Below, in pieces: positions 17,074 through 43,410 of a stretch of DNA of 64,000 nucleotides. A program made the position numbers and the translations under genes. The stretch is from Chiloscyllium plagiosum. Taxonomy: Eukaryota. Every line of letters begins with the position of its first letter. Position 1 is the stretch's first letter. Under the pieces are notes generated by a model that saw only the letters and a list, made by a program, of their open reading frames with translations, had not been told where the DNA came from and searched no databases. The stretch covers positions 24,405,465-24,469,464 of the forward strand of contig NC_057719.1 in assembly GCF_004010195.1 (NCBI RefSeq). The letters run 5' to 3'.

Positions 17074-17850
17074 GTATTCCAGTGAACATTCTGATGGAGT
17101 AGCCTACAGAATAAGTCTGATGGTTATTCACAATTAAATGGTTAGTGTGGTTGCAAACCTGCCAGAAGAACTATGATTACTGTCACTCACCATGAATCTT
17201 GAAACCTGCACTGGAAAGTAGTGCCGGGCTCCTAGACAGTGGTCTGGGCAACAGATTGCATTGTCTCCAAGTGCCACCAAAAGAAAAGAACTGCTATAGA
17301 GAAAGGAAAACCTGTGAATGTAAATTCAGCACCTTTTTAGCAAAGTCACATGTGAATGTAAGGGAGTGTTCCACCTGTAAAGGATTAAGAAACAGGGAGC
17401 AGTTTAAAAAGAAGAGATGGGGCTGAATACCCACCACCACACCCCAATCCCTCTCAGAAAAAGTGACCTCCTGTTTTACCCAGCCAGAATATACAAAAAA
17501 GGATTAAAATAAACTATTTCAACAATGGTATGTATGTGATTTTGGTTGGACGTGGACTGGAAAGCTAAGCGGCCACAGCTCTAACAACAACTATGCAACC
17601 ATTTAAATGCCCCTGCACTACAGGTAAAGCAAAACAGAAAGACTTCTCGTCTCTTTGAGTGCTGCCAGATAAATTCAAAAGGAAATAGGACAAAGGAATT
17701 TAATTCAAGTTATAAAACCAAGAATCTCAAGACTGATTGTTCTCTGCCAATGTCAGCACTACTGGTGCCTTTCAATAACAGCCTTGATATCTTTGTATCT
17801 GGTTATCATGGGCAAATCAGAAATTTTTAAAAATTAATCTTTTTTTTTTA

Positions 17851-17984
17851 GGGGGTATCCAAGATGGCGGCGACCCAGTAAGACTGAGTCTATAGTGCTC
17901 CTCCCAAATATCTGAGAGTTTTGTTTATTTTTGTAAACTTGTAAAAATGTTAAATTTCTAATAAAAATATCTATAAAAAAAAAA
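17851..17984 (+). mobile_element. ~135-bp L1-derived bipartite retrocopy (5' head joined to a poly(A) tail)
   Basis: Starts GGGGGTATCCAAGATGGCGGCGACCCAG, similar to the L1 5' end at 18475; ends AATAAA...A-run. 16-bp TSD AAAAATTAATCTTTTT (17829-17844 and 17980-17995) preceded by TTTTT. Confidence 0.75.
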
Positions 17985-18315
17985 TTAATCTTTTTGGACA
18001 CACCCCTTATTTAAATTCTCTATCCATGTATTTCTTCTTACTTCTAATAATTTACAAACGTTTTTATTGATTCAAGGAAGCCTGATTAAATAGGTTCCTT
18101 TTAAAATATAAGTTCATTTGTTTCTTGAGAAAGGTATTTACAGGGAAAGGGATCCTTTTGCAATTAACCTTGTCCAACAAATGGGGCATGTGATTAGAGA
18201 AGAAGAGCCAATTAAACCCTCTTCACCTGAGTGTTTAACAATTTGGATATGTCATCTTGAGTCGTAGCAAACCAGGACCTGATCAGGAGTACTAGAACTC
18301 TATGGGAAGCTAGGG

Positions 18316-18472
18316 AAGTGCAAGTGGAGTTTAATTTAGATAAATGTGAATTGCCGCAATTCGGAAAGGTAAATCAGAGCAGGACTTATATACTTAATGG
18401 GAAGGTCCTGGGAAGTGTTGCTGAACAAAGAGACCTTGGCTTTCAGGTTCATAGTTCCTTGAAAGTAGAGTC
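18316..18472 (+). mobile_element. CR1 fragment, left part of a copy split by the L1
   Basis: QVEFNLDKCE..FGKVNQSRTYILNGKVLGSVAEQRDLG..SSLKVES. Confidence 0.9.
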
Positions 18473-18645
18473 TCGGGGGATCCAGGATGGCGGTGACCTA
18501 GGACCGAGGATGGCTAGGCTCCACACCACGACATTGCCAGGACAGAGCTTTAACCCATCCTATCTATTGCTACTGTAAGTAAAACCACAGCAAAAGAGCT
18601 ATAGGACTTAAACATTTTACCTACCTTTGTTTTTACTGTGGAAGA

Positions 18646-19451
18646 ATGCTGAAGAAAGGAGGAAGTTCACCTGGGGCTGGGTCCTCGGTCCAACCCACTG
18701 AGGCGGCGGGCTTGCTTATTCACCAGGCCTTGGTTGTGGAGCTTGCCAAATCTAGCGAGGTCCTGGAGAGGCAGCTTGAAGAGAAAATCAAGGAAAAGCT
18801 GGCCCCAGTCTGCTATGCTGCAAGACCTGGCGAAAAGGACTGATGAGCTCAAGCACCAGACTACAGGGGTGGAGGCAGAGGCTGATTCTTTTCAAGTGTT
18901 AGACAGATGCCTTGGAAACACAAGTCTGTGGTTTGCTGGATCTGGTGGATGATCTTGAAAACAGGGGTAGAAGAAAGAACCTTCGTGCTCTTTGCACATC
19001 AGAGGGGATGGAAGGTCAGCGACCAGAGGAATTCTTTGAGAAGTGGTTCCTGGAATTTCTTAATTTGGAGGCTGAGAAGGGAAGGATAAAGATTGAGAAA
19101 GCCCTCCGGGTGATGGCACGAAGGACAGGAATGGACCAGCATCCTCTCCCTGCCCTGGTACAGTTCCATCATTATAAACATAGACAGAGAGTCATAGAAG
19201 CTTCCAGAGCCCAAGGGAAGGATCTGGAGGTGTTGGTGCGCGAGGGCTCCTGGGTTATGCTTTTCCAAGACTTTTCAGTAGCGATGATCTGGAAAAGGAA
19301 GCTCAATAACGACGTCAAGAAAAGATTAAGAGAGCTTGGGATCTAGTACTCTCTAAGAAAGCCAGCGGTACTTTGGATTAATTATATTGGATCTGTACAT
19401 TTATTTGACTTGCCAGAGAAAGTGAGGAAGTTTGTGGATACGCTGACTTAA
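18646..19451 (+). pseudogene. L1 ORF1 (coiled coil plus RRM/CTD), frameshifted
   Basis: DDLENRGRRKNLR, IKIEKALRV, FQDFS and KKRLRELGI motifs; internal frameshifts and a stop. Confidence 0.88.
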
Positions 19452-19826
19452 GCTGTGTCAGGCACAGCTGACAGAGCTGTTCAGGTTTGTCCTTCTTTAG
19501 ACAGGACTTGGTGGAGTCTCCTTTTGTTGGTAATAAGGTGCTTTAAATTATGCTCAGGATAGATAGAGTCTTTACCTTTAATTTCTAAGTTAAGTTATAC
19601 CAAAGGGTGGGTGATGTATTTACTTCTAACATACTTGTGTATAGTACTAACCTATTCTTTTCCACCAGGTTGCCTGTGTGTGTGGTGCGACACGAGTTGA
19701 TAGGAGTTAAGAGGTGGTTGAGATGGTTAGTAAGGTTTTGGGATGTGTAGGTGCCCCCTTTCAATGTTGGGTAAATTCCTCTAATCAATGCCATTGGTGC
19801 TTTTTTGTTTTACTGTTCTTGGTGCA

Positions 19827-19999
19827 CAGAGGAACTTCAATTATCCGAAGGACATGGGTGGGAGTATTTCCTTCGGTTAATTGCATTCTGGATAATCGAA
19901 TGCTGGATAACATAGTTTAGCCGAGCATCGAGGCATTGCAATCTTTCTGGATAATCCAATATTTGTATAATTGAATGCCGGATAATCAAGGTTCCTCGG
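19827..19999. mobile_element. Tc1/mariner (Tigger/pogo-like) MITE, 173 bp
   Basis: ~21-bp imperfect TIRs CAGAGGAACTTCAATTATCCG and CGGATAATCAAGGTTCCTCGG; TA on the right and CA on the left; internal GGATAAT repeats. Confidence 0.75.
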
Positions 20000-20150
20000 T
20001 ACATAGTTTCTGCAAGTTTCATAGGTTTGTTGGTAGTAGGTGTTTTAGTTTAAATAGTTTTTGTGTTTTGTGGACTTACTTATACTGAAGCTCAGTGATT
20101 CGTTGTTTAAGTTCTCCATCTCTGAAGGCTAAAGGGTGCTATCGAAGGTT

Positions 20151-23100
20151 ATGGCTAAGGATGTGTTCAAGTGTTATACCTGGAACATCAAAGGGAGTCA
20201 CTCCCTGGTCAAGAGGAAGAAGGTACTTTCCAGTCTTAAAAGGGAGAGGGTGGATGTTGCCATATTTCAGGAAACACACCTACATGATGCAGAGCATTCG
20301 AAGCTGCAACAGAACGGGTATGATCAGGTTTATTTATCATCTTTCAATATGAGTAGAGGGGTGGCCATTCTTGTTGGGAAGAATCATTTAATTTGTTAGA
20401 GTATATTAAAGACACACACAGGAGATTTGTCATCCTTAAAGCTTGGATACATGGGCAAGAATATGGGATTTAAATGTTTACTGTCACCCAGTCCACCTCC
20501 TCAAGTTCTTGATAGACGCACTTTCTAGACTGGTTAACCTCGTATCTCAACATATTATCATAGGGGAGGATTTTAGTTGTCTAGTAGATCCTATGGTGGA
20601 CAGATTACCTAAAGGCCCCCCGATACCTTCTTCATGATCTGAGCAATTAAGGGATTTGTGTATTGAACTAGGATTGGTAGATGTTTGGAGGCATCTTCAC
20701 CCTACTGGCAGGGATTTTACTTTCTTTTCGCATTTGCACAAATGCCCTACCAGGATTGATCTCTTTTTGACTCCTGAAGCATTTGGGCTCAGTGGCATCA
20801 TGTACAATTGGCAATATTACTATTTCTGATCATGGTCCAGTGTATTTAATGATCAAGGGTAAGGACACTATGGTAGGTTTGAGGCATTGGCAATTAGATC
20901 CCTTTATCCTTAAGGATAGCAAGTTTACTGAATTCTTTTCTACTGAATTCAGGGCTATTTTTAGACATTAATTTAGACTCAGCCAGTAATCCATTCATTC
21001 TCTGGGAAACTGCTCAAGGCTATGCTAGAAAGTTAGTTATTTCCTATTCTGCCAGTAAGAAACTGCAGAAGGGTGAACAGCAATGCTTGCTCGAGTCATG
21101 TCTGAAGGCAGCTGAAAAGGCATACTTTAATAGGCCCTGGTTGGCTAAACTGCAGAGGATTGTGTCAGTCCACACTGAACTTCATGCTCGCACAGACAGC
21201 TAAGAGGGAGAATACGTTTGCAAACCAAAGACTGTTTGTAGATAAGTACCTAGGGTATCTTGCCTGGAAAAAGAGCACTCCCCAAGCCATTGTTTCAATC
21301 AGGGAGGATACTGGAAATTTATTCCACAATTCTAAAAGGATTAAGAAATTTTACTACAAGCTATACCAGTCTGAAAGTTGTGAGGCTGGGTGGGTTAGGA
21401 AGGAGTCTTTTTTAAAGAATTTGGACCTTCCGGGTGTATCTACTTAGCAAGAGTCTCTCCTTAATGCCTGTTGTCAGTGCAAGAGATACAAGAGGCTGTG
21501 AGGCAGCTCCAGAATGGAGAGGCACCTGGTTCTAACGGACTTCCCAGTGAGTTTTATAAGGAATTTGTAAGTATACTATCAGGACCAATGCTTAGCATGT
21601 TTAATTATTCACATTGTCATGGTCTGCGAGGTGCTGCATTTTGGGAAAGCAAATCTTAGCTGGACTTATACACTTAATGGTAAGGTCCTAGGGAGTGTTG
21701 CTGAACAAAGAGACCTTGGAGTACAGGCTCATAGCTCCTTGAAAGTGGAGTCGCAGGTAGATAGGATAGTGAAGAAGGCATTTGGTATGTTTTCCTTTAT
21801 TGGTCAGAGTATTGAGTACAGGAATTGAGAGGTCATGTTGCGGCTGTACAGGACATTGGTTAGGCCACTGTTGGAATATTGCATGCAATTCTGGTCTCCT
21901 TCCTATCGGAAAGATGTTGTGAAACTTGAAAGGGTTCAGAAAAGATTTACAAGGATGTTGCCAGGATTAGAGGATTTGAGCGATAGGGAGAGGCTGAACA
22001 GGCTGGGGCTGTTTTTCCTGGAGCATCGGAGGCTGAGGGGTGATCTTATAGAGGTTTACAAAATTATAAGGGGCATGGATAAGGTAAATATGCAAAGTCT
22101 TTTCCCTGGGGTCAAGGAGTCGAGAACTAGAGGGCATAGGTCTAGGATGAGAGGGGAAAGATATAAAAGAGACCTAAGGGGCAACATTTTCACACAGAGG
22201 ATGGTATGGGTATGGAATGAGCTGCCAGAGGAAGTGGTGGAGACTGGTACAATTGCAACATTTAAGAGGCATTTGAATGGGTATACAAATAGGAAGGGTT
22301 TGGAGGGATATGGGCCGGGTGCTGGCAAGTGGGACTAGGTTGGGTTGGGATATCTGGTCAGCATGGACAGTTTGGACCAAAGGGTCTGTTTCCATGCTGT
22401 ACATCTCTATGACTCTATGACTCTTCCCACCATCTTTAAGAGAGGCAAATATCTCTCTTATTCGTAAAAAAGGAAGGTCCCATTGTACTATACTTTCTAT
22501 AGAGCCATTTCACTCCTAAATGTCGATTTTAAAATTCTATCTAAGACTCTGGCACTAAGGTTATAAACTGTTCCATCTTCCATCAATAAGGAGGATCAGA
22601 CAGGGTTTATAAAAGGTTACAGGTCATGGAATAATGTCTGGAGGTTACTTAATATGATCTAAGTATGTTAACAACAATTGATATGGGGATTACTGATCTC
22701 TTTAGACACGGAAAAGGCATTTGACCGGGTCGAGTGGCCATAGCTTTCTTATATTTTAAAGCAGTTTGGCATGGGTGAGGCCTTTATCAGATGGTTAAAG
22801 GTTTTGTATAGTGACCCTCTTGCTGCGATCCTCACCAATGGTGTGCGATCAAGAAATTTCAATATTCTTAGGGGCAGTTGACAGGGCTGTCCCTTCTCAC
22901 CATTGCTTTTTACACTGGTGATTGAACCACTGGTGGACGCAATATGTAGGGATCCCAATATATCTGCTCCAGAAGTGGGGACAAAGTCACATAAGATTGC
23001 ATTGTTAGCAGATGACGTTCTTGTCCTTTTATCAAACCCAACAGTTTCGGTGCCACATCTGATACAATGCATTAATTCGTTTGACAGCTTTTCGGGTTAC

Positions 23101-24160
23101 AAGATCCACTTTGCAAAATCAAAGGCCATGCCCATGGGTGGTCTCCCGAAAATGCCTGATCCTGAGGATGAATCTCGATTTCCTTTTAGGTGGTCAAAAG
23201 AGGGCTTTCTCTACTTAGTTATGTTTAAAATCAATTTTGCCCATTTATTCGACAAAATCAAACAAGACCTTCAAAGATAGAAGGCGCTTCCGATCTCCTG
23301 GTTATATTGGATATCCCTCATTAAAATGAACATTCTCCCCTGTCTGCTGTATCCTATGCAAATATTTCCTCTGCTTTTGCTAAGCAAATATTTAGAAGTC
23401 TGAACAGTTGGTTCAGTTCCTTTACCTGGTTTCACAAGTGACTCCTTATTAAATTGACTAAATTGCAGCTACCCCACAGACTGGGAGAAGTGGACCTCCC
23501 AAATATCAAAAACTATCAGTTAAGCTCGCTGCTATTTTATGTGAATGACTGGGCCCGGGCAACTCTTGCTCACTTTGGCTGGACACCGAGGAATCTCAGG
23601 CAAGGTGCCCCTTACGAGCTTGTTATTCTTGGACAGAATGAGGACAGTTAAGGATTATTGTCATAGCCCAATAGTTATTAATACTGTCAAAGCGTGGAGG
23701 GCAATGCAGCAGAGTGAGGAAATACTGCCAAAACATAATATTTTACACCCATAGTTGGTATGCTGGGTTTCCAGCCAGGGATGATGAACTCTGGGTTTAA
23801 ACTATGGGCAGCTAAGGGTGTGTCTTGACTGGTTGCCTAATTCGAAGGAGATACACTGATGTCTTTTGACCAGTTGGCTCGGAAATACAAGTTGCCCAGC
23901 AGGGACGTCTTCCGTTTTTTTCAAATTAGGAATTTCATACAAAAAGACTTCACACTTCTAACTGATTCTTTATAGATCTGACATGGAGAAAAGGGTGCTG
24001 AGTGCTGAGAACACACGTTCTGTCAGTAATATCTATCACCTATTGGGAGAGGGCCCCTTGGATATGTCCAATCAGCGCTTTAAGGTATGGGAGAGAGAGT
24101 TAGACATTGAGAACTCTTCTGAAGTATGGGAGGCTATCTGGGAAAATGGAAGGAGGATCT
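20151..24160 (+). pseudogene. L1 ORF2 (APE endonuclease plus RT), multiply disrupted
   Basis: TWNIKG..KRKKVL..FQETHL, ISDHGPV, APGSNGLPSEFYKEF, SLDTEKAFDRVEW, QGCPFSPLLFTLVIEPL, LADDVL, FSGYKI. Confidence 0.92.
21625..22424 (+). mobile_element. Young CR1 3' fragment inserted in L1 ORF2
   Basis: Long open CR1 ORF2 C-terminus and a TCTATGACTCTATGACTCT tail. The L1 reading resumes after it (PPSLREANISLIRKKG). Confidence 0.95.
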
Positions 24161-24164
24161 TGAT

Positions 24165-25195
24165 ATTGTGTTTGCCGAGCTGGAAGTTTTTGTTGCAAAC
24201 GTTTCGTCCCCTGGCTAGGCGACATCATCAGTGCTTGGGAGCCTCCTGCGAAGCGCTTCTTTGATGTTTCCTCCGGTGTTTATAGTGGTCTGTCCCTGCC
24301 GCTTCCGGTTGTCAGTTTCAGCTGTCCGCTGTAGTGGTTGGTATATTGGGTCCAGGTCGATGTGTTTATTGATGGAGTTTGTGGATGAATGCCATGCCTC
24401 TAGGAATTCCCTGGCTGTTCTCTGTCTGGCTTGCCCTACGATAGTAGTGTTGTCCCAGTCGAATTCAACAACCAGATTTACGAACAAATCAACGGAACAC
24501 CCATGAGATCACCAATCTCGGGACTCATAGCAGAGGCAGTTATGCAAAGGTTAGAACAAACAGTCTCTTAGGCATCTGCTGATGTAGTTGCGCGGGTATC
24601 CGTTTTTGGTGAATACCTTGTATAGGTGTTCCTCTTCTTCTTTTTGCAGTCCTGGTGTTCTGCAGTGTGTTGTGGCCCTTTTGAATAGTGTCCTGATGCA
24701 GCTTTGTTTGTGTGTGTTGGGGTGGTTACTTTCATAGTTTAGTACTTGGTCTGTGTGTGTGGCTTTCCTGTATACTCTTGTGGTGAATTCTCCGTCTGGT
24801 GTTCTCTGTACCATCACGTCTAGGAATGGGAGTTGGCTATCCTTTTCTTCTTCTCTCGTGAATTGGATTCCTGTGAGTGTGGCGTTGATGGTCCGGTGTG
24901 TTTTTTCTATTTCCGTGTTTTTAATGATTACGAACGTGTCATCGACATATCTGACCCAGAGTTTGGGTTGAATTTGTGGTAGGACTGTTTGTTCTAACCT
25001 TTGCATAACTGCCTCTGCTATGAGTCCCGAGATCGGTGATCCCATGGGTGTTCTGTTGATTTGTTCGTATATCTGGTTGTTGAATGTGAAGTGTGTTGTG
25101 AGGCACAAGTCCAGTAGTTTAAGTATTTGTTGATAGGTTCAGCGTCCTGTTTTCTGTTCTGTATGTCCAGTAGGTTGGCTATTGATACATTTTTG
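24165..25195 (-). mobile_element. Penelope-like element family 2 (probably Poseidon-type), 5'-truncated and internally rearranged
   Basis: ORF 24551-25108 has PMGSPISGLIAE, WVRYVDDTF, FTREEE..LPFLDV, VYRKATHTDQVLNYESNHP. ORF 24215-24487 has the GIY-YIG C-part FDWDN..REFLEAWHS..SINKH. Confidence 0.92.
24195..24234 (-). ncRNA. Minimal hammerhead ribozyme (PLE family 2)
   Basis: Minus strand reads GCA-CTGATGA-T-GTCGCCTAGCCAGGGGAC-GAA-ACGT-T-TGC: stem I GCA/TGC, stem II GTC.CCT/AGG.GAC, palindromic ACGT. Confidence 0.75.
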
Positions 25196-28095: not shown

Positions 28096-29639
28096 TAAAG
28101 GATGCATTGGTTGTAATTTTGAAAACTCATTGTATCCTGGAGAAGTACTGGAGGATTGGTAGACTGTCAGTCTGACACCCCTGTTCAAAAAGAGAGGGAG
28201 AAAAAAAGTGCATAACTATAGGTCAACAATATTGTTGGAAACTTGTTGCAATGAACTATTAGAGAAGTATTTGCAGCATGTTTGGAAAACACGATCTAAT
28301 CAAGCAGAGTCAGTATGGCTTCATGAAAGGGAAATCACGTTTGACTAATTTATTGGCGTTTTTTGAGGAACTCTCAACCATAGTGGATGGAGGAGAACCA
28401 GTAGAAGGGTTGTATTTGGACTTCCAGAAGGCATTTGTCAAGGTACTTCACAAATGATTAAATATTAAGATAATTGCCCACAGTATTGGAGATGGTACAT
28501 TGGCATGAATATAGAATTGGATCTTGTGCATGAAACGACTAGTGGGGATAAAGGGTTGTTTTTCAGGTTGGTGACCTTTAACTGTGGGATTGCACAGGGA
28601 TCAATGTTAGGACCCCAACTGTCTATAACATATATTATTGACTTGCGGGAAGAAAGCAAATGTACTGTAGCTAAATTTTCAGATGACACAAAAGTAGGGG
28701 GAAAGCCAAGTTGTGAAGCAGATATGAACAGTTTACAGAAAGATATTGATAAGAAAGTGGTAGAAAAGAAATTGGTAAGTAATGTGGGAAAATGTGACAA
28801 TGTTCATTTTGGAAGGGAGAACAAGAGGACAGGGTATTATTTAAATGGAGAAAAGCTGTCGAAAGTTGCAACACAAAGGGAGACTTGTGGGTACTTATGC
28901 AAGAAATATAGAAAGCTAGCACCCAGGGTGCATCAGGTAACCAGGAAGTCTAATGGAATGTTGGCCCTTATTTCAAGGGGGTTGGAGTATAAGAATAGGG
29001 AACTCTTACTACAACTGTACAAGGTGCTGGTGAGAACACACCTGTGAGTAGTTTTGTCCCCTTATGTAAGGAAATGTATAATTGGAGGCAGGACAGAGAA
29101 GGTTCATTAAGAAGGGCCCCAGTACAGAGGGAGTGTCTAATGAGCAAAGATTAAACAATTTGGGGCTTGACTCACTGGAGTTAGAAGAATGAGTGGTGAT
29201 CTCATTGAAACATGTTGAATTCTTAAGGAGTTTGATAGGATAAATGCTGAAAGGGTGTTTCCCCTCATAAACCAGAGGATATAGTCTCAGAATAATCGTG
29301 TGACAATTGAAGAGTGAGATGAGGAGGAACTTCTTCTCTCAGAGGGTTCTAAGTCTTTAGAACGTCTTGCCACAGAGAGCTGTGAGAACAGGGTCCTTGA
29401 CTATATTTAAGGTTGAGATAGATAGATTCCCGATCACCAGGGAAATTAACACTTATGGGGAAGGGCAGGAATGTGGTGTGAAGAATGATGGATCAGACAT
29501 GACCTTATGGAATGGTGGAGCAGGCTGTAAGGGCTGAATGGCTTACTCCTGTTCCTATTTCTTATGGCCTTATGACCTTTGTGTGAGCATGTTCAATGAC
29601 TGACTATCCTGGTAACTGTCTAACAGTCTAACTACTGTA

Positions 29640-31888
29640 CAATGGCATCAATATGAGCAGCCACCACACAGTTCTTGTGGAGATGTGGCTCTGCCTTCAC
29701 ATTGAGAATATCCTCCATTGTATTGTGTGACACTGTCACTGTGATAAACTAACAGATCTAGCAACTCGAGACTGGGCATCCATGAGGTGATTTGGAAAAT
29801 CAACAGTAGCAGAACTGTACTCCAGCACAGTCTGTAACCTCATGGCCTGGCATATTTCCCCCTCAACCATTATCATTAATGCAGGGGTTCAACCCTGATT
29901 TAATGAAGAGTTCGGGAAGGCATGTCAGGAGCAGTTCCAGGCATGCGTAAAAATGAGATGTCAACCTAGTGAATACACCAAACAGGACTTCTTGCATGCC
30001 GAACAGCATAAGCAGAAAGTAATAGATGAAGGTAAATGATCTCACAATCAATGGGTCATATCCAAACTCTGCAGCCTGCTATATCCAGTCTTGAATGGTG
30101 GTGGACAATTGAATAATTAAATGGAGGAGGAGACGCTCCACAAATATCCAAATCCTCAATGATGAAAGAGCCCAGCACATCAGTGCATTTGCAGCAATCT
30201 TCAGCCATAAGTGCCAAATGGATAATGCAACTCAGTCCCCTCCAGCGGTTCCCAACATGACAGATACCAGTCTTCAGCAAATTCAATTACACCACGTGAT
30301 ATGAAGAAGTGGTTGGAGGAACTGGATACTGCAAATGCTATGGGCCTTGACAACATTCTGGCAAAAATTCTGAAGACTTGTGTGCCAGAACTTGCCACTC
30401 CCCTAGCCAGCTTTTCCAGTACAGTTGCAACACTGGCATCTGCCTGACAGTATGGAAAATTGTCCATGTATGCCTGAACATCAAAAGCAGGACAAATCCA
30501 ACCTGGCCAATTACCACCTCATCAGTTTGCTGTCAATCTTTCGTAAGTAATGAAACGTGCCGTCAATAGTGCTATCAAGCAGCAACTGCTCAGCAATAAC
30601 TTGCTCAGTGATGCCCAATCTGGGTTCCACCAGGGCCACTCAGCTCCTAACTGCATTACAGCCTTGGTTCAATTATGATAAAAGAGCTGAATTCCAGAGG
30701 TGATTAAGGTGGGAGTGACAGCTCTTGACATCAAGGCTACATTTGACTGAGTGTGGCATCAAGGAGCCCTAGAAAAATTAGTATCAATGGGTATTGGGGG
30801 GAACTTCTCCAGTGGTTGGTGTCATACTTGGCACATAGGAGGGTAGTAATGGTTGTTGGAGTTTAGTCATCTCAGCTCGAGGACATCTCTGCAGGAGTCC
30901 CTCAGGGTAGTGTCTTAGCCAAACCATTTTCAACTGCTTCATCCACAAAACTCACCTCCATCATAAGGTCAGAAGTTGGGAAGTTAGCTGATGAGTGCAC
31001 AACATTCTGGACCATTTGTAACTCCTCAGGTGCTGAAGCAGCCCATGTTCAAATGCAGCAAGGTCTGGGCTGCTTAAGTATCTGAAGAGTTACAAATGGT
31101 TCAGGCTTAGTCTGACAAGTGGCAAATAACATTTGTGCCACACAAATGACAAGCTACAATCATCTCCAAAGAGAGACAACCTAATACAGTGGTGTTGTCA
31201 CCACTAAAAAACCCCACTATCAATATCCTGAGGGTTACCATTGACCAGAAACTCAACTGGACTAGCCACATAAACACAGTGGCTACAAGAGCAGACCAGA
31301 CGCTAGGAATACTGCAGCGAGTAACTCACCTCCTGACTCCCCAAAGCCTGTCCATCATCTAAAAGCACAAGTCAGCAGCGTGATGGAATACTCCCCACCT
31401 GTCTGGATGACGGCAAATCCAATAACACTGAAGAAACTTGAAAGCATACAGAACAAAAAACATCATTGATTGGCATCACATCCAAAAACATCTACTCCCT
31501 CCATAACCAACTGTCAGTCACAGCAGTATGTACTATCTACTAGATGGAGTGCAGAAACTCACCAAAGACCTTTAGACAGCACCTTCCCAACACATAACCA
31601 CTTCCATCTAGAAGGACAAGGGCAGCAGACACATGGGAACATGGCCTGCAAGTTCCATTCCAAGCCACTCGCCATCCTGACTTGAAGATATATTGCTGTT
31701 CCTTCACTGTCGCTGGGTACAAATCCTGGAATTCCCTTCGGAGTGGCATTGTGGGTCACTCCACAGTACAGAGCCTGCAGTGGTTCAAAAAAGTAACTCA
31801 TCATTACCTTCTCAAGGGTAACCAGGGACAGGCAATAAGTGCTGTCCAGCCAGCGATGCCCATGTCCCACGAGTGAATTAATAAAAAT
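29640..31888 (+). mobile_element. Second CR1-group LINE lineage, from the end of the endonuclease through RT to the tail, decayed
   Basis: DTANAMGLDNI, ELATPLASFSS, QSGFHQGHSA, ALDIKATFD*VWHQG, AGVPQGSVL, ADEC, LRVTIDQKLNWTSHI; distinct tail. Confidence 0.85.
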
Positions 31889-32759
31889 CAATTGCAATAA
31901 TAAAACTTATCATCTATCAAACCAGATTTCACTCTGAGATCTGACTAGTCCAGTACTACCATCAGCTGGGTTCATAACAATATTAGTTGCAGTGTTGAGC
32001 CCCAAAATGAGACCACTGGCATCAAATTTTGCTGCAAGTTGATTGGCCTCATGTCTCCTTTCAGCAGTTATTCTTGGCTCATGTAGTAATGCTTATTCCA
32101 AACAGGCACTAATGAATCTAAATCCTCACCCAATATAAATATTTCTGGGCTAAATGTTCATCAGAAAAAAAGTTTTTAACTTCACATTGTGAAGATAGCC
32201 TGTTATGGGGGAATCATAACTCAATACTGTAACTCAATGGTAATGTAAGTGTTAATTGCATATTCATGAGCAACAATAAATCTGACAGTACTGAATGTGA
32301 TAATCACAACCTTTTAACTATGTTGTTGCTATTGCCCCCTTCTGAGGAACACAATGTTTTGACTCGGAATATGTGTTATGATTTCATTATCACTGTCTCT
32401 CTATTCTCAAATTCATTACCTAATGCTATTGTGAGTACACTATCCCCACCACAAGGGCTGCTGTATGTCAAAGAGAGGACCCACTACCAGCTTGTTATAT
32501 TGATAATCAATTATTATAAATATGGTTTGCCAGAATTATCCACATGGCAAGCTAAAGGCTGTTTTGAAAAATGTGCTGAGTTGGAAATCCCTGGCCGTAC
32601 TTCTGCAGTTTCACCATGGTTTCAGGTTCCAGCCTTATGTTATATATCCAAAATGTAAATTTATTGACTGTTCAAAACCTAGCAAGTTGTAGTGATGAAG
32701 GGATGCTCTATGAGTTGTGAATAGTTGCAGCTAGATAGGTGATTTTCATTACTCAGTCA

Positions 32760-33075
32760 TTCACGCAATCACAGATGTGTTACAGAGCAGAAGGAGACCA
32801 TTCGGTCCATCATGTCTGCACCAACTCTCCAAATGATCATCATGACATGGTGCCTTTATCCTATACCCTTGCACTTTCCCACTTACCCTTGCCTTTTCCT
32901 CATTCTCTAGTTTTATTTCTATTTAAATAATAATCTAATGCTCTCTTGAATGGCTCCGAATCTGTTTCCATCACACTGCCAGGTAATGCATTCCAAAACT
33001 CATTTTGTGAAGACGTTTCTGTCAAATCACAGTTGCTTATTTTGCAAATCATTTTAAACCTGTCCCTTTTATAAA
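32760..33075 (-). mobile_element. Old CR1 3' tail
   Basis: Minus strand WNALPGSVMETDSEPFKRALDYYL. Confidence 0.7.
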
Positions 33076-33866
33076 GTCTCACTCCTGCAGATCGTAAAAT
33101 ATTCCATCAGATGCCAAAGATTTGATATTTTGTTTCACTGTTTCTCCTTTTGAATCAAAATTGATTCTAATTCACCTTTTTTCCTCTGGCACTCATTTGT
33201 TTTCTCTCAACATCTTTATGTTTTCTCAGTTAAAGAGATAGGTCATTGGACCTGATCTTTACAAAATTGCATGTGTCTGATGAAAGTCATTGTGTCATTA
33301 TCAATTATCATCTGGGGTTTAATGACCTGCTGTAAATATCTAATGCACGCTCTTGCCAAAGAATGGAGCACTCCAACAAATTTTAGCCGACAGCAGTTCC
33401 AGGAAATCTCTGTCTCTCCTCTATGAATCAAGTTTTAAAGGTTTTGTTCACTCACAGACTTTGAAGATTTTCTTTGTTCTGTCAAAAGCAGAACTGAGTG
33501 CAATGATAAAAATGCAGCCTCTACAGCTTCAACACCAAGCATTCAGATTTTACATCTACCAGTTTGGCAATTCCCAACCTTCCATTCACTTGTTGGTTGC
33601 TACAATAAATAGGCAGAATGATAATCATCTTCAATCTCACTCATCCTCTACTTGAGCTGTTTCCAATCCATCATCCAGGGTATCGACTGTAACTCAGTGT
33701 CCAAGCAGTAATATCTCCAAGTTTCACTTCAGGCTGATGATGTGGTGTTGTATCATTGGATATCCTAGTGCATTGGCAAATAAAATACAAATGCCAAAAA
33801 CAGATAATCTGATCATCACCTGCTTGTATGCTTGCTAGATTTTTTTTCTATATTTCCTGCAACATC

Positions 33867-34045
33867 CCTCCGGGTGCTCTGGTTTCCTCCCACAGTCCAA
33901 AGATGTGCAGGTAAGGTGAATTGGCCATGCTAAATTGCCTGTAGTGTTAGGTAAAGGGTAAATGTAGGGGTATGGGTGGGTTGCGCTTCGGCAGGGCAGT
34001 GTGGACTTATTGGGCCGAAGGGCCTGTTTCCACACTGTAAGTAAT
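33867..34045 (+). mobile_element. HE1-type SINE, 5'-truncated
   Basis: CTCCGGGTGCTCTGGTTTCCTCCCACAGTCCAAAGATGTGCAGG..GGGCCGAAGGGCCTGTTTCCACACTGTAAGTAAT. Confidence 0.88.
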
Positions 34046-37000
34046 GTGGAATTGAGTTCCAATCCTGCCTACTTGCAAATTTTGTCAAAGTTGTGCTATG
34101 GTTTCTTTTGAAGGTCACTTGACTCTATCCTCAAGGTTTAGCCCTAACTGCATATTTGATTAATTCATTTGCTACACTTTTGAACCTGGATGATTCTTGC
34201 CCATGGAAAGTAGGTTCTTTTTACTAAATCCATTTTCTAAATCATGCCTTTTTTTTGTGATGAAGAATCCTGAAGTCAGTATTGGCCAAGCAAAAAGACT
34301 TAGATTCATCACTCAGTGGATTACATTTGTTCTATATATTAAGAATGAAGAAAACATTTAGAGCACCGAAGGCAAATGTCTCACAAATGTAATAATTCAA
34401 CTGAAAAGAAACAAATCCAGGATGCCTGAAGGTTTTCTTTCATGCATTACATATTCTGGGAACTTTGATAACCTTTCAAACTTTTAAAAACTTCATTCCA
34501 GATGACATGTGATTGCCTATCCTTCTCTAGCCAAGTGGATGCAGCAATCTGGGGACCAAGTTTTTCAATCAATGCTGTTCAGTAACCAGGACAGGATATT
34601 CAAATGGTGCAAGCCATATTTCAGTTTATCCCTGCCCTCTCACCATGATAAACATCTTCTAAGAGCCCCTGCGGAAGCTTTCTAAATCTACCTTAATAAA
34701 GAGAGTGAATGACTGATCTCCTAGGACATTGATTTATAACCTCAAACTGAGGATCATGTACTGATTCAACTAAGAGGGAACTTCCCAGAGGTATGGAGAG
34801 AATAGACTGTGTTTGTCCAATTAATTTAGAAAAGGAATTTTAAATATTGCTGCTCAGGAAATTTATGAAGCCACTCCATCAGTACATATAATAACAAGCT
34901 CTGGGCAATATGAAAGTATGACAAATAGGATGTTCTCCAATACAAATGCTCATAGACACTGGGTGGAAATTGATGTTAACAATCATCAGCTAGTGACTTT
35001 TTGAGTTCATCAATAGAAGAATTTATTAATCATAATATTCTGGCATTATTTTAAACTTTTGAATATCAATTATGATTTGGTCTTCCTGTTGACTGGTGCT
35101 GTTTTCTTTTGAGTAGAATGCAATTCATTCTCCAAAGTTGTTCATTGAGTCTGGCCTGGGTTAGAGTTATTGGCATCTCGAGGATATGAAGAGCATGGTC
35201 ATTTGAAGGAACATTGCAGAACCACCTGCCGTGGCTATTGCTGAGGCCTTGATGCCAATGTCAGGAAGAACATCTGTCTCTATAGAAGGCATGCATCCAA
35301 TCATTCAGAGAATCTGAGGAAGTGATTTGTGATCTTTGGTGACTTTTTAAATGGTAAGGTGCAAGCAAGGGCAATCATAAGTCAATGTTACTTGCCTATG
35401 GCAGTCAAGTTAATCATGGCTCTCAATTTCTATACTATTGACAGCTTTTAAATTCCAGTGGAAATCAGCTGAGGAGGTGATCATTTGGCCAGCTGAGTCT
35501 GTGTTAACTCTAATCAGAACAATTTAATTAATCCCAGAGGTAACACCTTTCAATCTGGGAAGACAAAATACAGGTGACTGTCATTGATTTGATCTTGTCT
35601 GTTTGCATATCATCTTTGAAATGAAGACAGATAAACAAAATAAAAGAATCAGAGCTTGGGTTCAGGAAATAATTCAATGCACTCAAGTTATTATTAAAGC
35701 TTCATCCAGTGACAATAAAATTCAAACAGCTTGAACATGCTGATAAATTGTCACCATTGATTTGGATCATGCATGTTTATCCCAGAACTTTTAAAAACAA
35801 ATACTGGTAGGGATGTGGGTGTTGCTGGTAAGAGAGATATTTATTGCTCATCCTTCATTGCCCTGAAAAGGTACTAGTGGGTTTCTTCCTGAACTGCCGC
35901 AGTTTGTGAAGTAAATGGATTCCCAAATAGCACCAGACAGCATATTGCAACATTTTGACCCCGTGGTCATTAAGAACCTTTCACCTGTAAAGTGATCACT
36001 TCTGAACAAATGTAATCGAACAGTCACAACACTATGTGGTGCATGCATGATTTTTTGAAATGACTGGATAGTGTGAAACATTCCACAGATATTCCAAACC
36101 CTATGTACAATTTATGTTACTACAATGTCACAATGCCACCTTTATACAAGGATTGTATTTTTGCAGGGAATAGCACAGATTATCACTTAAACACCCTTCA
36201 TGTGTTGTAAGATAGCCTGAGACAGTCCACATTGTGGATAGAGATTAAATGAAATGGGGTTTTGGCTGGTAGAGCTTTGTGACCAAATTTCCCTTCATTG
36301 TCTGTCCAAAGTTATAACAAAACATACAGCAGGCAGGGGAAAAATCTCAGCTAGTTTATTAAAGAGAAGAACAGACTGAGCTGTGATTTTGTGATGAATT
36401 TCTATCTCTGGGTGTTCATTTTTGCTCCTGTGTCAGAATTTATGAAGAATTGTATATGCTACTATTACATCAGGTCAAGATATAATCTTTGTATCACTTC
36501 TCTTACTGTTCATAACCAGTGCTTTTGGATAAATCACACTTGTCTCTATTTCTAAGCCTCTGAGTGTGAGGTCAGTTTTTAAATAAATAAGTATTTGTGG
36601 ATTTAAATAAAGACGATTATTCATTGTCACATTTACTTTGCAAGTTTAAATTCTTATCTCTCACTCACACACACATACATTCCAGAAAGAGGATACTGCC
36701 CTTTTTCCAAGTTGTAAACAAAATAATACTTCACATTTCATTTGTGGCTTATTGTAGGAAAACAAAACACATTGTGGACCTGTTGAAAAAGGCATATGAC
36801 TCCAAAAGGGTACTCAAAGTGGTTTCAGAAAGTGGAAATTATATATAATCATTATTACAGGATATTCTCAGAGATGTTCTTCCCCCAGAAGATCATAATA
36901 TTAGTTACTTGTGGTTTCGTTACCAGAAAGTCAAGTTTCTAATTTGTTGGTCATTGAAAAGGAATAGGATAGTTTGGAGACTTTGGATACATAAAATCTG

Positions 37001-38059
37001 GAAGTCAATTGATTTTGGAAGTTTTGGATAAATCACAAACATTAGCAGGTATAAATATCACAGATAGGTTCCATTGGGTTACATCCATTGAAGGGAAAGG
37101 CTCCCATTCATTGATATTTAATGAGCTATTTTCCAGAGATTTGCAGCAGAAATTGCACAAATCCACCATGCCTTTGGCAGCCATCCCAGTGTCTATTTTA
37201 AAATAAAAACTGTTCCAGAAAATGATGTACTGAATGAGGTCCATGTCTGAAGTTATGAATAGTACATGCCTTCAATAGACATGACACATACTGATAAACT
37301 CATTTCTCTTTCTTCGAAATTGTGGTAACATCAAATCAATTCAACTCCTACTGTCTTATGAAAAAGAAAAAATAAGCTCATGTCATCCACAAACTGCAGG
37401 GAATATTCTCAAATTAATATTAAATCTCAGCAATTCAATGGCTGACAATTTAATCATTCTTAACTGAAATAATCAAGTCTGAAAATGCCGGAGGATTTTT
37501 TTTAATATTTGTTTCTTTCGCACAGTGAAGAATGTAGCCATGCACACTGAGGTGAACAAAGTCATCCACTGCAGGCACTCCTTGTGTGATCACACACAAG
37601 CTGCCTCCAATGTGCACTACCTGCAGCTGAGGTCCCATTGGCCTGGAAATGGGACTTAACCACATCTGTACCATTTTGGAGAAAAGTTGTCATACTTAAC
37701 TGATATCAAAATACACTCAAATCATGTTCAACGTAAAAATGTGTTGTTAAAAACTTATTTTCAGAAACTGAAAATTACATTGAAATATTATTAAATACTC
37801 TTGAAAACTTTACCTTGTTAGCCAGAGTATTTCGTAACATAAATATTTTTTGTATTTCTGTTCTGATTCAGCAATTATTTTCTGCCAGTGGATTGTCACA
37901 TACCAAGTACAGTGCCTCACTGCCTGGCACTTATTATCTCACCCTATAGGTCACTTCTTGTGTACCAATTTGGGCAAGGGGTTTGGCAAGCTCATCCTTT
38001 GGTGGAAGTATCATAACTAAACTTGACTTGGCTACAACTGACAATCAAGCACAGTTGGT

Positions 38060-38463
38060 CAACAGGCAGCACTGCTGCCTCTCACAGAACCAGGGTCCCA
38101 AGTTCGATTCCAACTTCGGACAACCGTCTGTATGAAGTTTGCACATTCTCCCTGTGTCTGCATGGGTTTCCTCCCGGTGCTCCATTTCTTCCCACAGCCC
38201 AAAGATGTGCACATTAAGTGGATTAGCCATGCTAAATTACCTATAATGTCTAATGGATTAGCCGTGCTTAATTACCCATAATGCCTATTGGATTAGCCAT
38301 ACTAAATTACTGATAATGTCTAGGCTAGATGGATGAGCCGTGGGAAATACAGGATTGCAGGGATAGGAGTGTGGGTCTGGGTGGGATGCTCTTCAAAGGG
38401 GTCGGTATGGACCTGATGGGATGAATGGCCTGCTTCCACACTGTAGGGATTCATGATTCATGA
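38060..38463 (+). mobile_element. HE1-type SINE with an internal 35-bp triplication
   Basis: tRNA head and V core; GATTAGCCRTRCTWAATTAC.. units at 38221, 38256 and 38291. Confidence 0.85.
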
Positions 38464-39715
38464 TTATATTTTGACAGATGCCATGGGTTATTAATCAGGA
38501 GACAACACTCACTTATTCCTTTCTACAGACTTAGGATGCCAAATCTGCTTGTGCTATCATGGTTGCTGGATGACTGAGAATAGCTAATCTTGCACAAACC
38601 TAGGATCAAACTGGAACTTTTCTTGACATCCCATCTCAGTACCTGCTCCAGCCATTCCGAAGGACAATTCCCTGTATTCTGGTACATCCACCTCCCCCCC
38701 CCCAAAAGTGTCCTTTCAAATGGGATGATCCAGAGGGTTTGGTTGCAAATATGTTAATAATTACCCATGAAAAGCTAAACAATTAAATACCTAGTCTTAT
38801 GTAAAATGAACACCCCTCGACATCTTGCCACTCATGCACACCCTCAACTGCACCATTTCCAAAACCCATTACACTCCTGGAAATGAGATGTGGTTTGCTT
38901 TCTCCTGACTAATCTGCATTATGAGGACAAAGTTGCATTTAAGGTGCATTCTGAATTTCTGCAGGATCCATGTTTGGAATTTCCTGTCAGAAATAGGGAA
39001 CTCTTTCTTCCTATCAAAAGAAGAAGCAGAATGAGAATTTGAATGAATGGTTGCTCCTCCTCTGAAAATCTGACCCTATGACTGTACTATGAGCAACAAT
39101 GAGTGAAATATCACACATGGGTTAAATGAGTAACAATTATTTGCTGGGACTGATCACCAACAATCTTACCAAGGAATACATACATGTGTTATTATTAGAT
39201 GCATCTTTGTAATAATTTATTGATATTTATTTTCAGTTACAAATGTATTGGTGAAGATTAACAGTTGTGAAATGCTGTTTATGTTCAACATTGACATTGT
39301 CAGTGATTGTAATGCAAGCAGTGCTTATTTAAAGATAGTAATAAACAACAACTGATTGTGAGAAAATATCAGTTTAAAATATAATGTTGAATTGGCGCTT
39401 CCCTTGAGGCTCACTGAGTTGTGAATTCAAACGAATAGCACAAAAGAAAGAGGTTATATCAGAATGAATGGTAAGTATTTTTTAAAAATTGCCCTCTCAA
39501 GATGAATCCTGTAAGCTATTTCACTACCATTTTGTAAATATCAAAATTCAGGCTGTAATTCAAAACAGATTTGAGAATGCAATAATGAACATCCAAAATC
39601 ATAAATTTTGATTGTCAAATAAGGGAATTGTTTGCAATTCTCCATTTTTGTGATTGGTTGCTGCTTTCTGTCATTGCCAATGATGTCAGCTTCCTCTTTG
39701 TGGATGCATGCTTTT

Positions 39716-39734
39716 TGCGCCATCTAGAGGTGCC
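39716..39734 (-). promoter_or_regulatory. Candidate CTCF-binding site
   Basis: Minus strand CACCTCTAGATGGCGCA closely fits the CTCF core CCnCnAGRKGGCRS and lies in unique sequence. Confidence 0.5.
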
Positions 39735-41164
39735 TGAACTACAGCCTTTGAGAAAAGAACAAACTATGTGTATATGGCACGTAGCACAATCTCCCAAAAG
39801 CATCAAGGACAATAAAGTGCAGTTCCTGGTGGAATGCAGCAGCCAATTAGAAAACTGCAAGACAAAGGTTAAGATACATGCATTTAAATAAAATGATTTG
39901 TGTCCAGGCCAGATCGCTGTATTCAGAACATATTGTCACAATGTATATGCCATTCGCAAAATTCTCTTACTCTTTTATCCATATTAGCCTTCCATCACAA
40001 AAGCATGTTTAATAACAGAAGTGATAGTGGCATGGCAGTGCTATGGCTGAATCCAAGTTATTCTGAAGCTATTAAGAATTAAGCCTGTAGTGTGGAATTG
40101 AAGGCACATATTGGTAAACCTAGGTAATCTTACTACCTGCCCTACAGAGTGATAATGTACCAGTAGGGTTTATGCAGCAATCCAATACATTTAATGATCA
40201 TTTTGTTTATTGCTAGGCAACATATTACAGGATTTATTGAATCCGAGTAATCTTGAACTTGGCCTTGCTATGTTTCGTAACACAATCTGCTAAAATTAGA
40301 TTTGAATATATGATCTCTAGATTAGCTAGCCTTGTCTAGGTTACCTTGCCTAATTTTAAATTATTCCATTGCTGTTCTTTTAGTTGTAAAATAAAATTCT
40401 CAATTATTCATCACTTTCCATTTTCATCAATTTCCACCATAAATTTGATTCATTTTACCTGTTATAGCAAACTTCCACATTATCCCATAGGAAACCTGTA
40501 AAAAGTTACACAGTTTAATGAAGGAATTAACATGGTAATAATTGTAGAAAAGCTGACAGAGTTTAGCCAGAGTTTAGAATATATATATTTCAAATGCACA
40601 GTTTAAACAATTTGCAGTAATTTCTCAGTTTGAATCTTGAATTTATTTCTCCCAAATGAAGTCACCACTGTTTGCAATCGCAGTAGAAGTGGTGATATAA
40701 CCTGAATAAAAGGACAAATATTATAGTCAGTGCCTGAAAGCAAACAATCACCAGTGAATTACAGCCTTTACAAATGCATTATCCTCTTCACACCAGCCAT
40801 TAATATGTGCTGTCAGACTAAAGCTGAACAGGTACTTTTTATTTCCCTGTATGACAACTGGTGGCACAGGCATTCGTCAAAATGGGACCAGAGAACTGGT
40901 GTAACACCAAGTTCTGAGGAGCATCTTGCCCATGTTATGATCAGTTCCTGGGTGAGAGTCAGCATTACATTATGGATAATATACTGCTAATTGCTTATTC
41001 TCCCTGGTGAGGTGTCAACAAGGTTAATCTAAAAGAGTTCTGTTCCCTTGTGGGTATTTTTCCCCAATCTAAATTTATTTAGAGCCATAGAGATGTAGAA
41101 AACTTGCAGCACAGAGAAATGCTATTCATTAGCTAAATAAATGTTGCAAAATGCCCAGGCAAAA

Positions 41165-41375
41165 AAATGAAAGCTTTGCATTTATATAGTACCTTTCACA
41201 ACCACCAGCTGAAAAACCAGTTGTTTTACAATCAAATCATGACTGAAAGTGTAAATACCGCTGTAATGTAGGTAGCTAAGAAGCATAATAACTCCCCACC
41301 AAACAGCAAAATGAGAATAACCAAATATGTTTTTGTGATGTCAATTCTGGCATAAGTAATGCCAGAGGGATAACT
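41165..41375 (-). mobile_element. Deu-domain SINE 3' part, old
   Basis: TTGCATTTATATAGTACCTTTCAC..GCTGTAATGTAGG is the reverse complement of the tail seen at 2030-2165. Confidence 0.55.
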
Positions 41376-41384
41376 CAAATAGGT

Positions 41385-43410
41385 GCAACAGAAAAATTAC
41401 AACAAAAGAAGGAAGCTATTCTTCCCATCTGAATAAACTATTCTAATCCATTCTAATCCCACTTAGTATGTCTGTAGCCTTGCAGGTTACAGCACTTGAG
41501 GGACAGTTCAAGGTTCCTTTTCAATGAGTTGAGAGTTTCTGCCTTGAACATTAAATTGGGCAGTGAATTCCAGAAGCCGAATACCATCTGGGTGAAAGAT
41601 TTTCTTAATGTTCCCATTAATCCCTCTTCCAATCGCTTTCAGTCTGTTTTTCCCGGCAACTGACCTCTCTGCTTGGGGTAAACAGGTCTCTCCTCTGCTC
41701 TATCAAACTCCTCATTATTTTGTACATTTCAATTAAATCATCCCTCAGTCTCCTCTGTTCTAAGGAGACAATGCTACATTCTCCAATCTTTCCTCATGCC
41801 TGCAACATTCTTGTAAATTTTCTTTGTACTTTCTGTATGGTGGTTATGTCCTTTTGTAATGTGGTGAGCAGAACAGCACACAAAACCCCAGGTGTGGCCT
41901 AACTAGTGTCTTATAGATTTATAGATATTTTCTAATCACCCCTTCAGAGACAGGACCTGAATCTGAGCCTGCTGGTCCATAGGAAGGGACACTATCACAT
42001 TACATCCTTAATATTGTATTCAAGACCTTACCCTCTGAATGAAAGCATCCTATGTGCCTTACTTACATTCAATTGCCTGTAAGCAAGTATCCAATGTCTC
42101 TCAATTTCACTGCCCATCTCAGTGCCCTCCTGTTTATTGCGTATTCCCATGCTTTGTCTGATGTGACTAAATGCATTTAGTTCTACAGATTGAATTCCAT
42201 TTGCTAGCTTTCTGCCCACTCAACTAAACCATTGATATCTTCCTGCAGTCAATAGCCATCTTCCATTCATAGCTACCTGTGTTATTGCCAAATTTCCTAA
42301 TCATGTTCTCACATTTAAGGCTAAACATGAATGTATGACATAAAAGGAAGGGCTTGAAAAATGAACCCCATTGAACACTACTAGAAAATGTGTTTGTCAT
42401 TTGCAAAAACATTGATCAACTGTTATGCATCATTTCCTGTAACTGAACAAATTTTGGATCCGTTTTGCCACATTCCACATACGCACTTTAATTATTGAAC
42501 AGTCTGCCATGGGGAACCCTGTTAAATGTCTTATGACAATCCATGTACACAACATCCACTGTACTTCCCTTATCTTTCCTCCTTGCTACTTCCTCAAAAA
42601 GTTCAATTTATTTAGTAAGACATGTTTATCCCTTAAAAGAACCATATTGACTGTTTCTGATTAATTCATGTCTTTCCAAGTAATAGTTAATTCAATTTGT
42701 CAACTTTGACTTTGATCACTTGCTCACACCAACGGTCACACTGATGAGCTAAATTTATTTGGCCTATCTTTTGCATCTTACCAAAACCCCTTCTATCTCA
42801 TCTGTAACTCAAGAGGATTGGAAAATGATATTCAGAACAGCTGTTAGTTACACCTCCCCTCTCCCCAGTTCCTGAGGGAGCACAAGCAGCCAGGCGCTAT
42901 TGTGCCTCTCTGCATCTGTGTATGTGTGTGCGTGCGCGCGTGCTTGCTATATGGGATGAGGGATGGGGCGGTGATTATCCACCTTCAAGGAGGTCAATCC
43001 TTCCAATACTTCCCTTCTCATTATACTTATTGTGTATCAAATTTGTCGGTCCACCTATTGAACTAGAATGTCTGCACAAACAAAAAACAAGAGGACGAGA
43101 GATGCTGTAAATCAGAAACAAAAACAGAAGTTGCTGGAAAAGCTGACTAGATCTGGCAGCATCTGTGACGAGAAATCAGAGTTAATGTTTTGGGTCAAGT
43201 GACCCTCCCTCAGAACTGCATCACCTGCACAATTATTCTCCTTTGGGTAAAATCATTATTAAGAATCCTGACTACATTTTGTGCATCTAAGTGTAAGTTA
43301 CCATATACATCTCTAATAGTCCCAATCCTTTCCATAGTCATCCTCTTGCTCTTAACACACTGATAAAAAAAATCTCTAATTTAACTGGCCAATGTTTTTT
43401 CATACCTTGT
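41385..43410 (-). mobile_element. Very old CR1 remnant with small nested insertions
   Basis: 41500-41680 mirrors 1620-1830 in reverse; CTTCCTCAAAAAGTTCAATT (IELFEEV) at ~42590. Confidence 0.6.
43081..43217 (-). mobile_element. Short PLE end (older subfamily, as 15785-16030)
   Basis: GAGATGCTG..GCTGGAAAAGCTGA..TCTGGCAGCATCTGTG..CCCTCAGAACT; CTGCACAA occurs on both sides. Confidence 0.7.

Follow-up and report, generated by a model that had tools for sequence, protein, structure and literature searches.

A recent 135-base insertion built of L1-type termini in the genome of Chiloscyllium plagiosum

Results

Structure of the insertion and its target site

A real and recent retrotransposed copy of 135 bases was found in the window, a term that here means the whole 64,000-nucleotide stretch of DNA that was analysed. 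It consists of the 5' head of an L1-type element joined to an L1-type 3' end. An empty site in a second organism, the homology of the head to an L1-type element, and the many different flanks on which head and tail occur support an insertion by the L1 machinery (TPRT) that was built only of L1-type termini. The explanation favoured here, held at about even confidence, is a one-off (or very rare) fusion of head to tail by a template jump during the insertion of a young L1.

The two TSD copies are identical, stand at an offset of 151 and enclose 135 bases (17845-17979). At a spacing of 50-400 bp they form the only exact direct repeat of a 16-mer in the 64 kb, and the three 14-mer repeats at the same spacing are all sub-words of this TSD. 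The earlier note had described an identical 16-bp TSD on both sides, TTTTT/AAAAA at the left edge, a few extra T ahead of the head, and AATAAA with an A tail in a T/A-rich segment; all of these were recovered (Table 1), the extra bases being five T plus one A. The switch it had placed after about 60 nt was located at 17907/17908, where the GC content falls from 0.56 in the head to 0.14 in the tail. Including its A10 run, the tail (17908-17984) measures 77 nt.

Table 1. Coordinates of the insertion, its target site and the neighbouring element in the window.
Feature	Positions	Strand	Basis
L1-endonuclease-type target, T5/A5	17824..17833	+	Sequence, compared with the consensus 5'-TTTT/A-3' in the available part of PMC2837659
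Left 16-bp TSD copy	17829..17844	+	Exact repeat; site present once in organism B
Six-base stretch (five T, one A) separating the head from the TSD	17845..17850	+	Sequence
L1 5' head, 57 nt	17851..17907	+	Likeness to the start of the neighbouring L1; depth; varied flanks
L1-type 3' end, 67 nt without the A run; AATAAA at 17960-17965	17908..17974	+	Depth, loose ends
A10 run, poly(A) remnant; its last five A are the first five of the right TSD	17975..17984	+	Sequence
Right 16-bp TSD copy	17980..17995	+	Exact repeat
Older, broken L1-clade element	18475..24170	+	5'UTR, ORF1, EN and RT pieces

Two features of L1 TPRT, poly(A) at the 3' end and a T-rich/A-rich target, are both present. Judged from the letters of the target, the bottom-strand nick would lie between 17828 and 17829. 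The target (17829-17844, 17990-18000) is near-palindromic with a T5-then-purine step on both strands, and both nicks may have fallen at endonuclease-type sites. The six extra bases together with the T5 of the TSD (17840-17850) are the reverse complement of 17974-17984. The 5' loose-end consensus of the family finishes in a purine run, and the A among the extra bases may be the family's own first base.

Positions 17860-17871 of the head are taken here to be a YY1-like motif, as predicted from their letters. An ATG inside this motif, with a stop after four to five codons, was observed in both L1 heads (17864-17881; 18487-18501), and in the insert this upstream ORF of 5 codons is the longest.

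Empty site and age of the insertion

Positions 17600-18250 were compared at 85% likeness with four of 24 listed sequencing runs, a list in which none is on record as RNA; runs X15-X17, X19 and X20, with their small shares, were left aside. In the related organism B (X13), one contig of 1272 nt (record 9), with a shorter side of 229 letters, spans both flanks and omits 150 bases (17827 to 17978). Of 497 flank bases compared, 14 (2.8%) differ between organism B and the window. The X1 data of organism A contain a contig that enters the head from the left flank (17600-17886, 0 differences) and another that extends from the A run across the right flank. Together with the TSD, the empty site in organism B shows that the insertion is real and recent, and the flank difference of 2.8% makes it younger than a shallow split between A and B, or polymorphic.

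Both flanks also carry repeats. On the left, 17666-17742 is a low-copy repeat whose bin depth peaks at 61 (A) and 145 (B), and 18062-18127 on the right is a moderate repeat with a bin depth of about 280-1150 against 2-20 nearby; its translation resembles, by eye, a fragment of an old L1 endonuclease.

Origin of the head and the tail

The start of the neighbouring L1 resembles the insert's head in 42 of 58 columns over the entire head, with a score of 45.5. Among 1998 tiles the best that overlapped neither the insert nor the L1 start scored 28. A blastn search within the window likewise matched the head to 18475 over 27 nt (E 7.6e-4), so that the claimed match to the L1 start was found. The divergence that the earlier note had seen after the initial match was not borne out, as a weak likeness instead continues beyond 28 nt and spans the whole head.

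The element that begins there carries L1-type ORF1 and ORF2, with L1 and Tx1 not split by a tree. Its RT piece matched human LINE-1 ORF2p at E 2.5e-17 and also RVT_1. The ORF1 piece (18903-19343) was nearest to Transposase_22 clusters (0.91) and had no match in Pfam or PDB, and the EN piece had no Pfam match. A CR1-type insert (21625-22422) interrupts the element, stops also break its reading frames, and rearranged Penelope-like sequence follows it from about 24170. Its 3' end was not found, and as TSD partner only an unconvincing 8-mer, at two places, was detected. A strong donor-like word occurs in it at 18575. Elsewhere in the window, a single run of 858 N (197-1054), either an assembly gap or a mask, lies between RT-like sequence and a Penelope-type end in which a hammerhead-like motif was noted by eye.

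By its likeness the neighbouring L1 is a relative of the insert. As its parent it was rejected, since it agrees with only 42 of the 58 head columns and the tail scores 24.5 against its body, which is chance level. Pieces of the parent were not found elsewhere in the window either (0 matches for two motifs at up to 3 mismatches). Exact matches were also absent from metagenome contigs (head word, tail word) and viral contigs (tail word), where the host is not expected.

Both parts of the insert are highly repeated. The summed depth of the X1 contigs ranges over the head from 47,000 to 93,000 and peaks on the tail at 202,000, compared with 2-6 for the unique flanks. In X13 the head has 29,000-43,000 and the tail at most 159,000 (bin mean), with flanks at 10.5. 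Summed contig depth is not a copy number and possibly overcounts 31-fold; even so, the copies of head and of tail each number in the hundreds to thousands. Long, A-rich 5' flanks that do not resemble one another lead into position 17857 in 41 contigs of X1 and 34 of X13, and similar numbers of contigs exit at 17981-17984 into unlike 3' flanks. A head derived from the 5' end of a host mRNA, the processed pseudogene that the earlier note had set against its own reading, is ruled out by a head depth thousands-fold above that of the flanks and by these dozens of unlike 5' flanks meeting at one position. A Pol III SINE, whose head would derive from a tRNA, 5S, 7SL or snRNA, was likewise rejected: the head is L1-like, and an Rfam search over 17700-18700 gave 2 matches only (E 5 and 5.8), far below the gathering score.

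At the junction, copies of the head and of the tail each continue into other sequence. At 17907, 20 contigs of X1 pass from the head to one shared sequence unlike the insert (agreement 0.90), and at 17891 six pass to a sequence related to the former. Record 16 of X18, a run whose RNA status is a guess, continues for 432 nt past 17907 in sequence unlike the tail, which makes the parent of the head at least about 500 nt long. RNA reads entered the tail from a common upstream sequence, 79 of them at 17908 (0.93) and 25 at 17913 (0.90). Head and tail are the ends of longer, abundant L1-type elements. No record ties the parent of the head to that of the tail, or the tail to an ORF, and a chimera of two different families is possible.

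The RNA run had 9 reads on the head, compared with some 200 on the tail. All seven plus-direction reads on the head extend to 17907, and the tail reads continue into many unlike flanks, as expected for copies within longer transcripts. Read direction in X21 was about 4:1, the strand depending on the library type. The head-to-tail depth ratio was 0.25-0.46 in DNA contigs and 0.04 in RNA reads, the former being high for a LINE subject to 5' truncation. Many copies of the parent family may be complete at the 5' end, or the family may be a shorter non-autonomous element in its own right.

At 17879 the window's own letter accounts for 40% of head depth in A and 2.6% in B, and at 17883 for 47% and 0.2%, respectively; related heads have therefore expanded in the lineage of A. 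These enriched letters and the second head type, which exits at 17891, suggest that an L1 subfamily underwent a burst specific to that lineage. Depth in organism A drops from 86,000 at 17883 to 51,000 at 17893, which suggests that much of the expansion in A belongs to the head type exiting at 17891.

The junction between head and tail

In the best-supported loose ends, the parent sequence removed from the insert starts with GA after 17907 and finishes with TT before 17908. These junction bases are those of the loose-end consensus rather than of an assembled parent, and in it the parents of head and tail have no base in common at the join itself. By eye, the 5-mer ACTTG was noticed shortly past the head in the head's parent and, in some parents, shortly after the start of the tail. 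Of the two junction types proposed earlier, neither a GT-AG splice nor an exact microhomology matched the parent ends, and what was noted nearby is this imperfect 5-mer.

RNA folding offered no guide to a looped template. The structure of the insert gave a z of 0.26 (head 0.71, tail -0.31, junction -0.34, head of the neighbouring L1 1.13), and a head-tail duplex of -5.8 kcal/mol was ordinary, as 27% of 2000 shuffles were equally good.

Pieces crossing the junction and simulated copy numbers

None of the 24 longest listed pieces crosses the junction (2327 more exist). The longest internal pieces measured 68 nt in X1, 73 nt in X13 and 70 nt in X18, each confined to one side. A variant at 17893 was carried by 19 contigs in X1 and 17 in X13 with a from_end of 15, the exact distance to 17907, and the sole X18 contig over 17893 exits at 17907. 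The left-flank contig of X1 is unbranched to 17886, from which it would follow that no other locus in X1 has exactly the same 5' end. Within the 64-kb window there was no second copy of the insert.

How many copies such a table of pieces would reveal was simulated with 1000 parent heads and 3000 tails in three runs per setting, leaving out bubble removal and low coverage. With 50 copies at 4% divergence, 12-13 crossing pieces longer than 68 nt appeared in all three runs, 4-6 of them flank-anchored. At 300 copies and 2% there were 7-9 crossing pieces (1-2 flank-anchored), at 300 copies and 1% only 0-2 with none flank-anchored, and at 1000 copies and 0.5% none. A single-copy junction yielded a piece of about 60 nt, which is shorter than the listed pieces. 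Taken with the zero crossing pieces, the simulation disfavours an old mini-family shared by A and B, whereas a young family of up to several hundred copies at no more than 1% divergence would escape the piece table. Contig assembly drops rare variants. Depth persists at the junction, with X1 bin means of 47,000 and 52,000, and crossing copies thus remain compatible with the data.

Discussion

A proposed template jump during L1 insertion

The earlier note had offered either a SINE-like family made of L1 termini or a spliced or internally deleted transcript. The composition from L1 termini stands, splicing is not supported, and an old family is disfavoured. After A and B had split, the target was cut at the L1-endonuclease-type T5/A5 and 16 bp of it became duplicated. 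In the favoured fusion by template jump, ORF2p would have used the poly(A) for priming and reverse-transcribed some 77 nt. It would then have switched, without a change of orientation, to +57 of an L1 RNA and copied on to the 5' end of that RNA. The acceptor could have been a short 5' fragment or the original RNA in a broken or looped state, and the short imperfect likeness of the parents beside the junction (ACTTG) may have guided the jump. Perhaps the T-ended top strand then primed briefly on the poly(A) and produced the extra T run; slippage, or the family's own first purine, may explain the extra bases equally well.

Same-orientation L1 joins are ascribed to template switching of the RT in the available text of PMC11702581 and in that of bioRxiv 10.1101/2025.02.02.635956, the latter naming RNA ligation as an alternative. 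Cultured cells yield internally deleted L1 insertions (PMC3414825, in the part available), and for L1 insertions with 5' poly(T) the accessible portion of PMC2837659 proposes priming on poly(A).

Alternative explanations

A young mini-L1 family that is specific to organism A and copies itself, with L1 mobilising a master copy in trans, is an unlikely explanation with a real share of the probability. Such an L1 SIDE would be transcribed from the 57-nt head or from a host promoter. Stated in full, the insert would belong to an unspliced Pol II retroposon of about 135 nt, with a 57-nt YY1-like head and a 77-nt tail, present in A in tens to hundreds of near-identical copies that would have arisen after the split from B within the A-enriched burst of this head type, and this too is unlikely. 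The intact state of both ends, the AATAAA and the clean TSD all suit such a family. So do the burst of related heads at 17879 and 17883 in A, the high head-to-tail depth ratio in DNA, and the extension of 7 of 7 plus-direction head reads to the junction, and according to the simulation the piece table would miss such a family. A random encounter is also more likely with a member of a family than with a one-off. At the junction itself the pieces speak against it: no listed piece crosses, contigs with the variant at 17893 stop at 17907 in both DNA runs, and the only X18 contig there exits at the same position. The head type exiting at 17891 may, moreover, hold much of the depth enriched in A, and the 5' end of the insert is private in X1. 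In the available part of PMC5786205 (2018), RTE, Ingi, Vingi and R2 are the only reported sources of ORF-less bipartite LINEs.

It is distinctly unlikely that a longer or full-length L1 inserted first and that a later genomic deletion left its two ends. A perfect TSD, a true 5' end and a unique junction that is not a splice would be explained equally well by such a history, and non-homologous recombination is the favoured origin of R2 SIDEs in the accessible text of PMC3414825. However, little time has passed since A and B split, and in it both breakpoints would have had to arise as near to the ends as 57 and 77 nt; the loose-end consensus, too, shows no exact microhomology at the junction. 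A longer allele was not seen, in data unable to show one.

An error of assembly is improbable as well. In that case a long young L1 would be present, and two contig ends reaching into it would have been wrongly joined. Lengths of 57 and 77 nt are what short-read contigs reach into a repeat, no independent piece spans the internal junction, and the window carries its run of 858 N inside a Penelope-like repeat, although that run may be a mask. The best run contained 31 of 39 sampled words, a slightly better fit to an absence of the junction words (P 0.16) than to their presence (P 0.07). Against this, the missing words are mostly a matter of low coverage, as shares vary widely between runs of one sample (0.80 and 0.56; 0.67 and 0.59), and the junction has neither an N nor an overlap that a gap-closer could use.

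Splicing of an L1 RNA from 5'UTR to 3'UTR in an unseen subfamily, copied back in trans, is very improbable: while by eye the tail parent shows a word like a branch point upstream and, some 9-11 nt into the tail, an AG, the best-supported parents read GA...TT and not GT...AG at the join, which rejects a junction of the SpIRE type and leaves the spliced transcript of the earlier note unsupported, the match of 17908-17916 to the tail parent keeps the junction from sliding to the inner AG, and the sole GT[AG]AG in the insert (17878) was kept, unused.

Relation to known elements

The architecture of the insert is like that of an ORF-less bipartite LINE, or SIDE, and its insertion like that of any L1 TPRT product. 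With the chimeric or internally deleted L1 products described in the available parts of PMC3414825, PMC11702581 and bioRxiv 10.1101/2025.02.02.635956 it shares a single TSD, poly(A), a target of the endonuclease type and a make-up of two identically oriented pieces derived from RNA. Compared to these it is extreme, at about 134 nt, with both pieces being termini, in the germline and in a non-mammalian vertebrate. The available section of a classification of 3,611 somatic L1 insertions contains no ends-only class (bioRxiv 10.1101/2024.08.27.596794).

SIDEs and bipartite LINEs (RIME, NARTc, Bov-A, the derivatives of Vingi-1_EE and the R2 SIDEs) likewise consist of LINE ends only, with no ORF and no Pol III head, in the accessible portions of PMC5786205, PMC3414825 and PMC7245038, and like them the insert would need the proteins of its parent in trans. 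They are multi-copy families whose sources, as far as those portions go, are RTE, Ingi, Vingi and R2, and several carry ribozymes at the 5' end, whereas the insert belongs to an L1-like clade and is known from one locus. The RTE bias is restated in PMC7245038, in the part available. An L1 SIDE was unobserved according to the available text of PMC3414825 (2012), which ascribes this to cis preference. In the literature covered, mostly titles and the starts of abstracts, with Repbase and supplements outside it, no ORF-less family made only of L1 ends was found.

SpIREs also keep the L1 5' start, lose promoter sequence, insert by TPRT and are probably dead on arrival. In the accessible part of PMC5860796 their junctions are splice sites within the 5'UTR or into ORF1 and recurrent (131 of 6,609), in contrast to the insert, whose junction is not GT-AG and which lacks the whole L1 body. 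The human SpIRE97/622 joins 97 nt of the start to the end of the UTR and has lost most promoter activity (same part of PMC5860796). Extrapolated across vertebrates, this loss makes a head of 57 nt probably weak, and an insert with 57 nt of promoter would probably be dead on arrival.

Two further comparisons are more distant. An extra T run from the left TSD to a sense L1 piece is shared with the 5' poly(T) insertions of PMC2837659 (available portion), but here five extra T plus one A are followed by a true 5' end. HAL1, or half-L1, is also L1-derived and non-autonomous with both ends kept (PMC5786205, in the part available). It retains ORF1, whereas the insert has 135 bp with no ORF1 and no ORF past five codons, and HAL1 was rejected as an assignment.

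Significance

Should the insert be multi-copy, it would represent an ORF-less bipartite family of the L1 clade and would test the explanation by cis preference given in the available text of PMC3414825. If it is a true young SIDE, less than 140 nt would hold a working LINE promoter together with a mobilisation signal, which would define a minimal internal promoter. As a one-off, the insert is a good example with no new principle: a natural record, dated by the empty site, of the L1 RT joining both ends of its RNA. Parasites of the SIDE type are believed to originate in just such a joining of the ends.
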